From Botryllus schlosseri (lineage: Eukaryota), in assembly GCA_051294905.1 (NCBI GenBank), contig CM119371.1:20400001-20464000 (forward strand): 64,000 nucleotides of DNA, read 5' to 3'. The notes under the pieces are model-generated. The model was not told the origin of the DNA and searched no databases. It saw nothing but the letters and a program-made list of their open reading frames with translations. The stretch's first letter is position 1, and every line of letters begins with the position of its first letter. This document shows, piece by piece, positions 29,396-42,282 of this stretch. The position numbers and the translations under genes are program-made.

Positions 29396-30180
29396 ATGGA
29401 ATTATCACGAGTATCAGCACCTTCGATCACTGAAGAAAAGGATGAAATTATATCCGAAGCATATTCCTTGACCAGGAATTTTATCATGTACGAACTCGAC
29501 GGCTCATGCGTTAAGGTAAATACGAAAGCAGAGAGAACCTTACGTCAAGTTGGGGATGAAATGTTCGAGCGATATCGAACAGTCCTAAACGCAGTCTCCA
29601 AACGTCTCCGCTGTAGTGATGTTGAAGTCAATAAAAAATATAAAGAATATTTACCCGATGAGCGAATGTTCCTGATGATAGCTGATGAAATTTTCAAAGA
29701 TACCAAAGAAAATTGGGGGAGGATTGTCTCCCTATTTGTGCTCGGTAGCATTCTTGCTCGCAAGAACGAGGTTGAACATCACGGGGAGCATATAGAAGCT
29801 ATCATACAGACCGTTGGGAATTACATTGCTAGCGAAAGACGAAAGTGGATAGTGCGAAATGGAGGATGGGTAGGTGATTTACATGCCTTGCTTAGGATTT
29901 ACAAATTATCTTTAGCATGAGACATATAGTGTATCTGCTCTCCAGAGCCCATATCACCTCTCGATGATGAAATTCAGCTTTACCTTCTAATTCGGTTCCC
30001 AATTTATATTCTACGACACGATAACTTTCCTCCGTATGATCATTAAGGCTTCTATTTTTATTGCAGGACGGCTTTGTAGAATTCTTTGATAATACCGCTT
30101 TCGACTACAATAAAGTTTGGAAGGGACTCGTGTTTGTCGGAATCGGACTGACATCTATTGCAATGGCATTATCAAGATAA
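29396..30180 (+). CDS. Bcl-2 family (Mcl-1-like) protein, 2 exons (29396-29869, 30067-30180), 195 aa with C-terminal TM anchor
   Basis: BH3-like LRQVGDEM, BH1 NWGRIVSLF, BH2 WIVRNGGW|DGFVEFF restored by a phase-0 GT-AG intron; hydrophobic tail GLVFVGIGLTSIAMAL; Kozak aaaccATGG; AATAAA near 30218. Confidence 0.92.
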
Positions 30181-30789
30181 TGGATGTTCGCATGTTTTGT
30201 CTCATGTAATATTTTAAGAATAAAATCCTTCATCGTTTAATCGCATCCATTTTACTGTAGGATCTATACAGTTTCTTCTGAGAATACTCGAAGGATTGCC
30301 CCATATGGAAACCTTCTTTAAACTTTTAATTTTTCAAATTTCTACAGCTACGTAAGCAATTTGTTAGGGTTACCCAGAATACGTTGCAGGTCAAATTTGA
30401 TTCGATTACGAGCATTATAGCGACAGAGATCTACGATAGTGTAAAATAACCTACATTACGACATCAAATTTCGTCTTCTCTCCAAATGGAAATATCAGGT
30501 TCTATAATATTGTCTATACCGAACAAATATAAATTTGCCTGTGCTGTTGCTTTGCAAGAATACTTCGCTCACATAGTAACCAATTTCTGGTGGATTCCGA
30601 ATCGATATAGACAGAAATGCGGAAAGTTACATTGACATGTCTTAACTTCTGCTAATAAAGTTACATTGACATGTCTTAACTTTTGCTAATATGTAGGCCT
30701 ACCTACCTATAATCTTATCAGGCCGTAGCGCTCACGCAAAGCATTATCAAGTAAAGGAGAAATCTCCTAATTCTCATCTAGATACATAT

Positions 30790-33396
30790 TTATTCGGAAA
30801 ATATCCCCTTACTGGGTGAGAACAGTTGTTTTCTCAAGGTCTTCATATCTTCCCCACTCAAGCGCGGTAAGACTAGTTTGACTTTGCGGCATTCAGGATT
30901 ATATCTCACGAAGCTCTGAATGGAATTCACGTATTTCTCATCGATTCTCGTTCTATCGCTATCACTGAGGTCGATTGCCTTTAGCTGTTAATTGAATAAT
31001 ACGAGATTAATATCAATTTAAAAGTAAAGAAACGAACTACATCGCTACATCGGGATCTATGATTGAGCAGAAAGATCTTACCGTACCGCATCGTTTTCCC
31101 ATCTCTTCGCTCAGATTCCTGATTTGCATGGAAAGCATCTTGCAATTAGACAGATTAAATTCTTCCACACGGGAATTGCACAGGACTTTAGTTACTGTTT
31201 TGTAGCAGGATGATATGCCAGGATTTCTACTTAAATCCAGCGAATGCAGCTAAAACATGGTGTGATGTTCAGATAGATTACGAGACTACAAACGGCTCGA
31301 AGGCTGTAATAGATTAGTCATAATATTATTTACCGACGGTTGAGCATTTTTTTTTCTTTTTGCGACTTCTACTCCTAATAGCAAAAACTTATTCAACACC
31401 GAAGAAGATAATGAAGCTCGTGATCAGAAACACTTTATTGATGATGAAAATTCTATCGATCAATGAAATGTCATGCTTGAATATGACTAAAACTCACATA
31501 AGCATTACACTGTGATTGAATATTTCAGTTAGAAAACAAAACAGATCTACTTCAAATGATCACCTCATAAATTCCGAGACCATTATTTAACGATATTAGT
31601 GAGTCTTCATCCAATTCGCAAGCTGAAAGTCGAACTGTTTTCGTGTAATGCTTTCTTACGAAGCATCCAATTTCTTTCAAGCCCGCCGGTTCCATATCGG
31701 TATTGTAACTCAGATCAAGGCTTTCAACCTATAAATCCACCAATTTATTTCAAAATGATCCACAAAACTATAGAAACGATTAAGTACCTCGATATCAGCA
31801 AAACTTTCAAAAGCGTGAATTTCTTCGGGTGTAAGGCCACACCCTTTCATGATCAGAGTAACCGCTTTGTCTTTACAAAGTAAGGCAGGCAGCGCGATCA
31901 TACACTCTTCATCCAGCTGATTGTAACTAATGTCAAGATATTGGAGCTAAAAAATATCGGAAAATTTACGATCAGCAATGATCAGGCATAAAAAATTCAA
32001 ACTTATAACAGCAAAAAAATGTTGTTTAGTCACTCACGTCATAATATAGGCTAAATGTGCTAAGAATAAACTAGAATTTCCCTCATCCATCTCTACACAG
32101 TCGCTCATACAGAATGTGATCATTAACAACTGTACCCAGCAATAATCGCGCAGACCTTAATGTTTTTGAGCTGCATAGCAATGAAATCTGTTGACTGCAA
32201 GCGCGAGTTCACAACTGACAAATATGCTAGATCGCTCGAAATAATAGTCCCGAGTTGCGTAAAGTTAATGTTCTCCCTGTAGCTGAGATCGAGGTTTTTC
32301 AATTTCACCTACGGAAATGAGGTATTAGGAAATATCACTTCGAGAGGCTGGGAAGCGAGTGGCGCAGTTGGTTAAACACTGTAGTCACGACATCGATGGT
32401 TGATGGTTCGAGTCTCGGCTCTGCCATGTTTCTATGTGTCGGAGGTTTATCTGGGCTCCTCATCGCCGATCCCGCTGTAATACAGCGCATTGAAAAAGCC
32501 CAGACAAAGAGAGAGCCGAACTCGCGAAAGGAGGCAGCAAATGAGCAGAAAAAGGACTCAAGTCCATGAAGACATGACATTATGCGTTTATGAAATTTAC
32601 TGTGTGGGCGCAAATAACCACGAGTTGCAAAGCGCCAATTATATATGAGTTAATAAACAACAACAACAACTTCGAGAGGCTCTATACTAGATTAGCGCCT
32701 AGCTTTTTCCATCACCAATACCTGATGGTGCTGGATAAGTTTACTCAAAATAATCAGAAAATCATCGGATCCACCACTTTCTTGCAGATTGAGCACACTC
32801 GACGAAGCACACTCCTTCATCAGCTCGCAGATTAATGGGATGAGTTTTTCAATGTCGTCGTGTGCTGTAACGCTGAGTTTTCTTATTTCGACCTGAACGA
32901 GTGCAAAACGTAACGCATAAAACGCTAAATGATCTATGAACAGCCTAACACTGATCAACTCTGACTATAGTCTATCTAGTAAGGCTATCGAGACTAATGC
33001 CTATACCACTAGCAAATGAGCATTGTTCGCTGCGATACCACCAATTTGCGCCTTAACACATTAGTAATACAGAACAATGCGATAACGATAAAACTGTATC
33101 TCAATATTTACGGATAACATATACTTAAATTGAACGTGAATTTATAATGATCAATGACTACGAGCGGAATGTGCGAAGGCGTTTACCCCATATTCAAATC
33201 CGCGAATTTTATCCAATAGAATCTGGACGAGGTTTTCATTGAGATGACATTGACGAAATTCTAACTCATACACGTGAGATTGGCGAATAAGAGAATTCGC
33301 GATATTATTGATGTCCAATTCAGTCATAGTTTGGTGATAGAGCCCATAAGGAATTTTCACTTCATCATGATCCGTAAGTACTAATTGATGGTACAT
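30790..33396 (-). CDS. LRR-only (ribonuclease-inhibitor/NLR-type LRR) protein, 7 exons, about 406 aa, left-arm copy (frame intact)
   Basis: Mirror of 35290-37560; exons of 153-210 nt joined by phase-0 GT-AG introns; LxxLDLSxN repeats; start codon uncertain. Confidence 0.8.
32350..32668 (+). mobile_element. tRNA-derived SINE inserted in an intron of the left-arm LRR gene
   Basis: A box TGGCGCAGTTGG, B box GGTTCGAGTC, (CAA)n tail, 13-bp TSD ACTTCGAGAGGCT (32337-32349 and 32669-32681); empty site in right arm at about 36001-36013. Confidence 0.93.
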
Positions 33397-41537: not shown

Positions 41538-41765
41538 GTAGTATTATACACAGGGTTTATACCCCCTCCAATCAGCGTCGAGTATTTGATCACGTGACAT
41601 CTGTTAGCCAATCAGAACGCAGAACAATGTGGGTGTGGTTCCAATACGAGAGAGGTTTTGGTTGTGCGAGAGATGGCATAGTTCCAGTCCAGTAACGCTG
41701 AGATATTTATTACGTCATTGCGTAAGTTGATTACCTATGATTGCGTATTGCAGCATGATTACGTC
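41538..41765 (+). repeat. Left TIR, displaced inner 228 bp
   Basis: Reverse complement of 59137-59364 (a few mismatches near 41737-41739); on the right side it is contiguous with the outer TIR. Confidence 0.93.
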
Positions 41766-41802
41766 GCAAGCGTAGTTGATGCTCACTGTTATCTTCAAAA
41801 CC

Positions 41803-42282
41803 ATGGAATCTGCGCTCACTGAAGAAAAGGATGAAATTATATCCACGGCATATTCCTTAGCTAGAAATTTTATCATGTATGAAATCGACGGCTCAAGCGT
41901 TAAAGCAAATACGCAGGTGGAGAAAACCTTACGACGAGTTGTTACTGAAATATTTGAGCGATATCGAACTATCCTAAACGCAGTCTCCAAGCGCCTTCGT
42001 TATAGTGAAGTCAATGAGAAATATAAAGAACATTCACCCATTGAGCGAATGTTCCTGATGATAGCCGATGAAATATTCAGAGATAGTCAAGAAAATTGGG
42101 GTCAGATTGTGTCTCTTTATGTGCTTGGCGGCATTCTTGCTCGCAATAACGAGGCTGCGCATAACGGCAGGGATATAGATGCTATCATACAGACACTCGG
42201 GAATTACATTGCTACTAAAAAACGAAAGTGGATAGAACAAAATGGCGGATGGAGGCATTTTGTCATGTGGTATCACTTATAA
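41803..42282 (+). CDS. Intronless viral Bcl-2 homologue, 159 aa, no TM tail
   Basis: Clear paralogue of the palindrome Bcl-2 (TEEKDEIIS.AYSL.RNFIMYE.DGS; MFLMIADEIF; NWGQIVSL; WIEQNGGW); Kozak aaaccATGG. Confidence 0.93.
   Translation: MESALTEEKDEIISTAYSLARNFIMYEIDGSSVKANTQVEKTLRRVVTEIFERYRTILNAVSKRLRYSEVNEKYKEHSPIERMFLMIADEIFRDSQENWGQIVSLYVLGGILARNNEAAHNGRDIDAIIQTLGNYIATKKRKWIEQNGGWRHFVMWYHL

Follow-up and report, generated by a model that had tools for sequence, protein, structure and literature searches.

How does a host Bcl-2 gene come to be carried by mobile DNA in two forms, one with an intron and a membrane anchor and one with neither? Both forms occur in the window (the whole 64,000-nt stretch of Botryllus schlosseri DNA that was analyzed). 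We consider it fairly probable that a host Bcl-2 gene was captured as DNA and is now present as an anchored form and a truncated soluble form on three kinds of elements.

Nested elements and their Bcl-2 genes

The two genes had been described as two stages of Bcl-2 capture lying side by side. Instead, they belong to two separate elements nested by chance; these are two insertions and not one genome, and each element has its own 6-bp target duplication. The elements and their other contents are as follows:

25964-60221, no strand: palindromic non-autonomous Polinton-type satellite, arms of ~8.36 kb each, the right arm split by the Polinton
34321-34365, no strand: palindrome center, unpaired, 45 nt, a likely turnaround loop
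28856-28939, + strand: tRNA-Leu(TAA) of the left arm (ARAGORN), with a mirror copy at 39411-39494
41537-59365, no strand: full-length Polinton/Maverick (family A) inside the right arm of the palindrome, TIRs at 41537-41772 and 59130-59365
44302-54601, - strand: Polinton core, with integrase and packaging ATPase (by Pfam) and presumed protease, major and minor capsid, and protein-primed polymerase B
42784-43254, + strand: E2 ubiquitin-conjugating enzyme (PF00179, 164 bits)
42643-42715 and 43440-43512: tRNA-Ala and tRNA-Pro, on either side of the E2 gene
57044-57430, + strand: single-BIR (IAP-type) gene (PF00653, 42.9 bits)
58555-58839, - strand: Death-domain gene within the right TIR (PF00531, 43.9 bits)

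The satellite ends in AGTAGT..ACTACT and is flanked by a 6-bp target duplication (25958-25963 and 60222-60227). Its arm segments are 98.5-100% complementary, and a near-identical, uninterrupted copy is found on C17. No polymerase, integrase, or capsid ORF was found in its arms or in the 10 other palindromes mapped; the palindrome shares only its ends and target duplication with Polintons. Its tRNA-Leu is 84-85% identical to the Polinton tRNA-Leu at 56599.

Polinton/Maverick elements are recognized by TIRs with AG(T) ends and a 6-bp target duplication. The element at 41537-59365 has such TIRs and its own duplication (41531-41536 and 59366-59371), and Pfam detected an integrase with a chromodomain (rve and Chromo) and an A32 ATPase (Pox_A32). 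The ORFs that we take, from gene order and motifs, to be the protease, capsid, and polymerase are intact and of fitting size and order, without a Pfam match; a 110-aa ORF also had no match in the Pfam profile search. The capsid gene of family A is found in 12 copies at 97-100% in the genome. It should be noted that the tRNA, BIR, and Death-domain cargo is compatible with a survival role, of which it is no test.

The Bcl-2 genes and the features that bound them are:

29363-29395, + strand: what is left of host intron 1 (its 3' end), immediately 5' of the new ATG (by anchored alignment with the host acceptor region)
29396-29869, + strand: Bcl-2 exon with BH4-BH3-BH1-BH2, 158 aa (PF00452, 79.4 bits)
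29870-30066, + strand: phase-0 GT-AG intron of 197 nt directly after GGW, descended from host intron 2
30067-30180, + strand: last exon (37 aa, beginning DGFVEFF), which encodes helix 8 and a predicted transmembrane anchor
38170-38954, - strand: second intron-bearing copy, in the right arm (exon 38481-38954, intron 38284-38480, last exon 38170-38283)
41803-42282, + strand: Bcl-2 of 159 aa without intron or tail, with NWGQ in BH1 and a changed BH3 (PF00452, 71.8 bits)
42320-42619, + strand: native Polinton ORF, 99 aa, 37 nt past the Bcl-2 stop, marking where the captured exon was inserted

Re-reading the sequence confirmed the original prediction for both genes. The palindrome gene has a phase-0 intron exactly after GGW, followed by DGFVEFF and a hydrophobic tail (17-residue Kyte-Doolittle mean 1.98), and its right-arm copy is the exact reverse complement of the left one. 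The Polinton gene reads GGWRHFVMWYHL-stop, with no intron, no tail, NWGQ, and a degenerate BH3 (RRVVTE where the palindrome copy has RQVGDE). Both genes, and the donor exon described below (75.7 bits), passed the curated PF00452 cut-off of 31.4 bits. The palindrome and Polinton genes are 81.5% identical over 449 nt, in an alignment ending exactly at GGW. The transmembrane (TM) region is encoded by a separate C-terminal exon in the palindrome gene and the donor and is absent from the family-A copy; a TM region on its own exon belongs to the structure described for pro-survival Bcl-2 genes (PMC7022251).

A census of 119 loci, chosen as the best-scoring among at least 408 initial candidates, was de-duplicated to 100 distinct genomic places. 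An intron and last exon were present in 86, while 13 were intronless and one had the GT but no last exon that could be found. The intron-bearing copies retain GT (85/86), AG (85/86), and an open last exon (85/86), with a stop within the middle exon in eight. Their introns have 20 different lengths, from 58 to 263 nt, and 57 of the 86 are not a multiple of 3. This conservation of the intron exceeds chance. The intron of the palindrome gene thus appears to behave as spliced, and the spliced product is predicted from its sequence to be membrane-anchored and pro-survival; for the intron-bearing form in general, we infer splicing, anchoring, and anti-apoptotic activity. Intronless palindrome copies had been suspected from match ranges; all those fetched contain the intron.

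The frame is open in all 13 intronless copies. A Polinton-A TIR and core adjoin the window copy and each of the nine tailless copies for which long flanking sequence was retrieved. In all three Polinton-B derivatives that were read from end to end, an intron-bearing cassette replaces most of the polymerase.

The donor gene and the captured DNA

The donor is a host Bcl-2 gene on C14 (G000:C14) with three exons and phase-0 GT-AG introns of 404 and 184 nt. It is the orthologue of Styela clava bcl-2-like 2 (XP_039252627), with 54% identity over the middle exon and a matching N-terminus, encoded by the first exon, and tail; the C14 gene is also the best genome match of the Styela protein. No palindrome or Polinton gene was found in the 64.5 kb around it.

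The original prediction of a Mcl-1-like donor was not supported as it stood. The DGFVEFF motif on which the resemblance rested is specific to a subfamily (33/86 intron-bearing copies) and absent from the donor, and the best 60 PDB matches of the Styela orthologue are Bcl-xL, Bcl-2, and NRZ. In a PDB search, the palindrome exon does have Mcl-1 as its top match (43.1 bits), with NRZ close behind at 42.4 bits.

The proposed capture of host DNA, in turn, was supported by the finding of this donor and by the boundaries of the element copies. The exon at 29396-29869 corresponds to the middle exon of the host, its second codon now being the ATG start (74.7% nucleotide identity to the host gene). Just upstream, the alignment of the intron-1 acceptor remnant scored above 496-500 of 500 shuffles for each of the 16 distinct upstream variants; in the subfamilies that preserve it best, the match reaches ~110-137 nt into the intron. 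The same remnant lies upstream of the tailless copy, where it was matched by 0/500 shuffles. Homology of the element intron to host intron 2 was detected at z 3.3-4.2. In the window, similarity to the host runs past the last exon into the 3' UTR, to ~30287, and element copies keep the host UTR to about +230. Host exon 1 had no match in any of the 13 element copies tested; long matches had hinted at its presence on one subfamily, which a re-test did not confirm. As the copies retain intron 2 together with the last part of intron 1, and have their start at the new ATG, the capture took place at the DNA level.

Phylogeny also agreed with the prediction, in that both element copy types group together against host genes. 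In a protein tree rooted on other tunicates, the donor and the elements are united (100/99), and all ten element rows form one clade (100/99), with a donor branch of 0.022 vs an element stem of 0.21. A distant Patella row had put the root inside the element copies, and this long-branch row was left out of the final tree. The AU test rejected a clade of the donor and intron-bearing copies without the tailless copies (p 0.022) and did not reject a clade of intron-bearing copies alone (p 0.28). At its base, the element clade forms a polytomy, which is compatible with more than one order of transfer among the vehicles.

In the scenario that we favor, a Polinton-related element would have taken up a stretch of host genomic DNA that begins near the 3' end of intron 1 and extends through the 3' UTR. 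The second codon of the middle exon would later have become the start codon. Palindromic satellites and Polinton-B derivatives lacking a polymerase would have been the vehicles on which the intron-bearing form spread. On the family-A Polinton, the middle exon would have been set between the TIR and a native gene, with loss of the anchor exon and a nine-residue helix 8 either kept or rebuilt.

Loss of the tail and fate of the tailless copies

The insertion site in family A is marked by the 99-aa ORF, which is 31-32% identical (E 5e-10 and 2e-10) to the same-place ORF of a sister family without Bcl-2. This sister family (86% capsid identity) is intact and lacks Bcl-2 at 4/4 ends examined.

The simple intron loss that had been predicted for this copy was not supported as it stood. 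The junction coincides exactly with the intron position. In a peptide test, the tail resembled exon 3 (p 0.009-0.016) and not an intron read-through (p 0.3-0.8). However, the rest of the last exon is absent, the anchor exon and UTR being replaced by the native Polinton gene, and the 27 nt past GGW match the last exon at only 9-12/27, vs 21-23/27 just before the junction. A clean loss would give ~80% DNA identity past the junction (binomial p below 1e-4 for the observed values). No significant DNA match of the tail to the last exon or the intron was found, with a best anchored z of 2.7 vs 10-24 in host-to-palindrome controls. Because of the 9-12/27 match, we give a precise intron loss followed by remodelling about an even chance; replacement at the exon end is only slightly less probable, and intron read-through is improbable. 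Read-through after donor decay had been suggested by a resemblance seen by eye, and was set aside as the anchored DNA z values were mostly negative and the peptide comparison was not significant. Profile searches for a decayed anchor exon past the tailless stop gave no match. A colinear 12-nt word found there (3/4 tails; 0/150 random windows reached 12) was taken as chance because it sits inside the native Polinton ORF.

The tailless protein shares 64% identity with the donor exon and retains BH1 and BH2. Its alignment-based AlphaFold2 model (pLDDT 85, pTM 0.82; a single-sequence fold gave pLDDT 51) has its last nine residues helical, and the best PDB matches by Foldseek are Bcl-2 and Bcl-xL (probability 1.0, TM 0.63-0.74). 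The tailless copy is likely a soluble protein with a Bcl-2 fold.

The change from NWGR to NWGQ had been noted for the tailless copy. NWGR is present in 83/86 intron-bearing copies and in six of the 13 tailless copies, basal ones included, while NWGQ occurs in the seven youngest tailless copies, among them the window copy, and is thus a late change not tied to the loss of the tail. The BH3 GD is kept in none of the 13 (12 have VTE, VNE, or ANE and one was not parsed). In Bcl-xL, the R139Q substitution is reported to abolish pro-survival function and Bax binding (PMC6148235). With NWGR in its basal copies, the early tailless form was likely still a BH3-binding survival factor; BH3 would then have drifted, and the R-to-Q change gained by the youngest subclade would likely have weakened BH3 binding.

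A more ambitious version of this scenario, in which palindromic satellites are an intron-tolerant staging post passing host DNA to virion-coding Polintons for streamlining, and the 13 tailless copies record a stepwise loss of the anchor, BH3, and BH1 arginine towards a non-apoptotic role, seems to us unlikely.

We think it still less likely that, much as in the original prediction, the tailless copy arose by a clean RNA-mediated intron loss and switched to a non-apoptotic role, such as a block of innate signalling like that of vaccinia A52, B14, and K7. The junction at the exact intron position, the F-V and aromatic positions of helix 8 retained in the tail, the long family-A stem (0.14 in DNA, 0.19 in protein), and the universal loss of the BH3 GD would all fit, and vaccinia Bcl-2 folds acting on NF-kB do exist (PMC7022251). 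A clean loss is nevertheless at odds with the poor match past the junction and with the native gene in place of the anchor exon and UTR, and a role switch with the NWGR of the basal copies. Furthermore, the closest folds of the model are cellular Bcl-2 and Bcl-xL, A52, B14, and K7 are not named among the 50 viral fold matches listed, and dN/dS between family A and the other subfamilies (0.24-0.28, at dS 0.5-0.6) is not above the 0.25 seen between palindrome subfamilies. Comparison of sequence and fold revealed no link of the tailless protein to poxviral signalling inhibitors of the A52/B14/K7 type.

Just as doubtful is a decaying passenger, truncated on insertion and drifting in BH3 and BH1 with no selected function. 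Canonical residues are indeed lost stepwise towards the youngest copies, the sister family is intact without Bcl-2, and the window copy lacks five N-terminal codons found in its siblings. Against decay, all 13 frames are open, the predicted fold is confident with helix 8 in place, and dN/dS is low both within family A (0.36) and against the other subfamilies. The ratios for the middle exon (0.19-0.41 between element subfamilies) indicate purifying selection. Those for the last exon are 0.16-0.55 between subfamilies and 0.78 within subfamily P1; within Polinton-B copies, values of 0.67 and 1.40 come from three pairs with few changes. Against the host, dS is close to saturation (1.3-1.9).

Finally, independent capture of the two genes, as could be suggested by a few aligned residues at which the tailless protein is more like other tunicates than like the C14 gene, or domestication of an element copy as the C14 gene, is very improbable and largely refuted by the derived ATG and acceptor remnant common to both types, their single clade, and the Styela-like 5' exon of the C14 gene, absent from all tested element copies.

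Comparison with known systems

As a rule, viral Bcl-2 genes have diverged too far to reveal the route of their capture from a host. Here, a single genome shows the donor gene, where the captured piece begins and ends, an ATG born beside a decayed acceptor, three vehicles, a truncated derivative, and graded variants. Such natural sequences make it possible to test whether genes enter nuclear DNA viruses as DNA, to be streamlined afterwards, and in what order features are lost when a viral Bcl-2 takes on another role.

Each ingredient by itself is already known. Accessory Bcl2 and IAP genes have been reported in adintoviruses/Polintons (Starrett et al. 2021, PMC8502044), which likewise combine Polinton integrase, ATPase, and capsid genes with Bcl-2 and BIR cargo; the parts of that report dealing with these genes describe homologues alone, whereas the donor, intron remnants, and anchored/tailless pair are particular to the present case. 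The Bcl2 of a Branchiostoma adintovirus, which is present in the fold library, probably represents a separate capture, as the lancelet protein is only 11% identical. Nematode Mavericks carry wasp proteases and krma kinases as cargo (bioRxiv 10.1101/2022.07.12.499685), and these too are intron-containing host-type genes near the left TIR that are exchanged between elements. They belong to other families, and the relevant sections of that preprint describe no palindromic satellites; in the tunicate case, the donor and boundaries are visible. A search of viral_contigs gave 49 pattern matches and no confirmed relative, and searches of an open-access library listed no paper on this tunicate series.

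The vaccinia proteins A46, A52, B14, and K7 have lost the TM tail. They share a viral Bcl-2 fold with the tailless protein (PMC7022251) and have little sequence identity to host Bcl-2, unlike the 64% found here against the donor exon. Among invertebrate genes annotated as 'bcl-2-like protein 2' or 'NR13-like', the donor is an orthologue, while the element copies are without the first exon.

The case of vNr-13 from herpesvirus of turkeys offers an intron-keeping, TM-bearing viral Bcl-2 duplicated in inverted repeats, as in the palindrome. This gene has two exons, one intron, a TM domain, and ~64% identity to the host gene, and its two copies in the inverted repeats are spliced and anti-apoptotic (PMC7199394). 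In contrast, vNr-13 belongs to a herpesvirus and comprises the complete coding sequence, whereas in the Botryllus elements host exon 1 was left behind and a new ATG is used, and a tailless derivative coexists with the anchored form in many copies within one genome.

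Two Bcl-2 genes in nested elements

Two Bcl-2 genes, both passing the PF00452 cut-off (Pfam), are carried in the window by two elements, one inserted in the other:

25964-60221: palindromic element; its ends are AGTAGT, its target duplication measures 6 bp, and 45 nt at its centre are unpaired
29396-30180: intron-bearing Bcl-2 gene, its first exon starting at 29396 with 158 codons up to GGW
29870-30066: intron of that gene, 197 nt, with GT..AG ends
38170-38954: exact mirror copy of the intron-bearing gene
41537-59365: Polinton/Maverick (17.8 kb) with its own terminal inverted repeats (TIRs) and its own 6-bp duplication, inserted in the palindrome's right arm
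41803-42282: tailless Bcl-2 gene; GGW is followed by nine further residues and a stop, with no intron

The last exon of the palindrome gene encodes 37 aa, starting with DGFVEFF and ending in a hydrophobic stretch. The two genes are 81.5% identical over 449 nt, and the similarity stops at GGW. The original prediction of two stages of capture side by side is fair as a description of two states, but these belong to separate nested elements and not to one genome, and they do not amount to proof of a clean intron loss. A near-identical palindrome without the interruption was found on contig C17.

Pfam identified integrase+chromo, A32 ATPase, E2, BIR and Death-domain genes in the Polinton; the genes that we take to be its polymerase, capsid and protease were named by gene order and characteristic motifs. 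Five tRNA genes (28856-28939, 39411-39494, 42643-42715, 43440-43512, 56599-56682) all lie within the two elements, and a tRNA-Leu(TAA) is common to satellite and Polinton. Both palindrome arms encode a 113-aa ORF (26842-27183, 41167-41508) without a Pfam match, homologues of which occur in many palindromes and, in a distant Polinton family, next to the protease. Outside the Bcl-2 elements is a repeat array (21214-22753) with units of about 200-220 nt and 266-nt inverted ends.

A host donor gene on contig C14

A divergent match on contig C14 (locus L111) has three exons; both introns are phase 0, the first 404 nt long and the second, of 184 nt, directly following GGW. Its middle exon matched Styela clava bcl-2-like protein 2 (54%) and, at 65-68%, three proteins without a name; its first exon is similar to the Styela N-terminus, and the Styela protein had the C14 locus as its best match in the genome. 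These matches place the host among tunicate-type animals. Neither a long inverted repeat nor a Polinton gene was found in the 64.5 kb around it. Searched as DNA, its 5' part yielded seven matches, namely the gene itself, two fragments of a single broken copy on unplaced contig C112, and four short pieces. The broken copy (L150:3584-6465) has both introns and is 86.5% identical. Orphan pieces resembling the first exon (L145:4598-4725 region, C15:17.405M; L148:5566-5696, C3:27.80M) had no Bcl-2 exon in the respective 40-kb and 20-kb stretches examined.

The element start ATG corresponds to codon 2 of the host's middle exon, and host exon 1 had no match in the 13/13 element copies tested. In 16/16 distinct variants, tailless family included, the 33 nt 5' of this start codon resemble the 3' end of host intron 1 (0-4/500 shuffles), and the remnant is longest, 110-137 nt, in the best-kept subfamilies. 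The element intron is homologous to host intron 2 (z 3.3-4.2), and similarity to the host extends about 230 nt from the last-exon start, into the 3' UTR. The predicted DNA-level capture of a host gene is thus real and well supported, with the donor in hand. The label "Mcl-1-like" is weak: DGFVEFF is absent from the donor and occurs in 33/86 intron-bearing copies, and the first matches of the Styela orthologue are Bcl-xL, Bcl-2 and NRZ.

A protein tree of 15 rows, with other tunicates as the outgroup (a Patella row was omitted because its inclusion moved the root to within the element copies), placed the ten element rows in one clade (100/99) and the C14 gene as its sister (100/99); the host branch measured 0.022 and the element stem 0.21. 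Both window genes therefore group together relative to host Bcl-2 genes, as anticipated. An AU test on the 16-row set with Patella rejected a grouping of the donor with the intron-bearing copies that excludes the tailless ones (p 0.022); three other groupings tried were not rejected (p 0.42, 0.32, 0.28).

Retention of the intron and loss of the tail

A Bcl-2 query against the 495-Mb genome gave at least 408 first-look candidates, of which 150 were scored. Among 100 distinct places examined, a best-scoring subset of these candidates, 86 had the intron and last exon, 13 were intronless, and one had GT but its last exon was not found. GT and AG were each kept in 85/86 intron-bearing copies, and the last exon was open in 85/86. 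Intron lengths took 20 values between 58 and 263 nt, 57/86 not divisible by three, and between subfamilies introns were 75-80% identical versus 84-91% and 80-87% for the exons. The phase-0 intron after GGW, DGFVEFF exon and hydrophobic tail are as first described, and the element intron, with the pattern of a spliced intron, is probably spliced. In one subfamily (L043, L044, L046-L048), internal deletion has shortened the intron to 58 nt and left both splice sites intact, which makes it a natural experiment on how small an intron can be.

For the tailless gene, precise intron loss followed by remodelling has, in our judgment, about an even chance. The junction is exact, and against random open peptides the nine-residue tail is last-exon-like (p 0.009-0.016), although selection for helix 8 could yield an equal score from any source. 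However, tail DNA matches the last exon at just 9-12/27 positions, versus 21-23/27 just 5' of the junction and 17-22/27 between host and palindrome copies. DNA downstream of the stop gave no significant match to exon, UTR or intron in local, anchored or profile searches, and a 99-aa ORF beginning 37 nt past it has a homologue at the equivalent place in the sister family, which lacks Bcl-2; the anchor exon is therefore absent, not decayed. Replacement at the exon end is only somewhat less probable than intron loss, while read-through into the intron is improbable (p 0.3-0.8 for the same peptide).

Vehicles, selection and function

Of 11 palindromes mapped, seven carry the full Bcl-2 pair, one the last exon alone (in both arms, C16:7.36-7.375M) and three none. 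Polymerase-less Polinton-B derivatives have the intron-bearing gene (3/3 read), and tailless genes adjoin the TIR of Polinton family A. No Bcl-2 was found at the corresponding end of a sister family (86% capsid identity, 4/4 examined) or of a polymerase-bearing family-B copy. A 74-row DNA tree had a basal polytomy that did not separate the order of vehicles.

In the three B derivatives (L151-L159; C8:25.65-25.67M, C1:8.32-8.35M, C13:17.19-17.21M), the cassette replaces the polymerase except its last 53-76 codons, and capsid, integrase and ATPase genes are retained; the C1 derivative has a 13-kb palindrome inserted within. Ten Bcl-2 matches lie 5-12 kb from a Polinton-B-type capsid gene. One palindrome (L187-L188, C3:10.09-10.11M) holds a Death-domain gene 98.8% identical to that of the window Polinton, with part of its TIR, which shows that cargo has recently moved from Polinton to satellite. 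A family-A Polinton (L125-L127, C15:11.056-11.082M) has tailless Bcl-2 at both ends through an internal inverted duplication. At L124:5950-6310 (C1:6.106M), a chimera that joins the start of the Death-domain gene to a duplicated 3' end of Bcl-2 lies between the TIR and a basal tailless copy, which keeps CAG at the old acceptor.

Middle-exon dN/dS ranged from 0.19 to 0.41 in comparisons between element subfamilies, with 0.36 inside family A; last-exon values were 0.16-0.55 between subfamilies, 0.78 within the intron-bearing subfamily P1 and, on few changes, 1.40 within B. The tailless protein is modelled with a Bcl-2 fold, helix 8 placed (pLDDT 85), closest to Bcl-2 and Bcl-xL. The window copy has NWGQ and RRVVTE at its BH motifs; the NWGQ and degenerate BH3 first described are both present there, but NWGQ is limited to 7/13 tailless copies, the shallowest part of the family, with NWGR in the basal six. 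The BH3 GD is missing throughout the tailless copies. The same R-to-Q change is reported to abolish pro-survival function and Bax binding in Bcl-xL (PMC6148235, PMC3792877), so binding of BH3 ligands by the window copy is likely weaker. Weakening or retuning would account for this just as well as a new role, and the proposed role switch is speculative.

The sections consulted of PMC6431247 mention BCL-2 only for a planarian retrotransposon. Bcl2 and IAP homologues have been described in adintoviruses (PMC8502044) and intron-bearing cargo in Mavericks (bioRxiv 10.1101/2022.07.12.499685); vNr-13 is a viral Bcl-2 that kept its intron (PMC7199394), and Bcl-2 folds of vaccinia act on NF-kB (PMC7022251).
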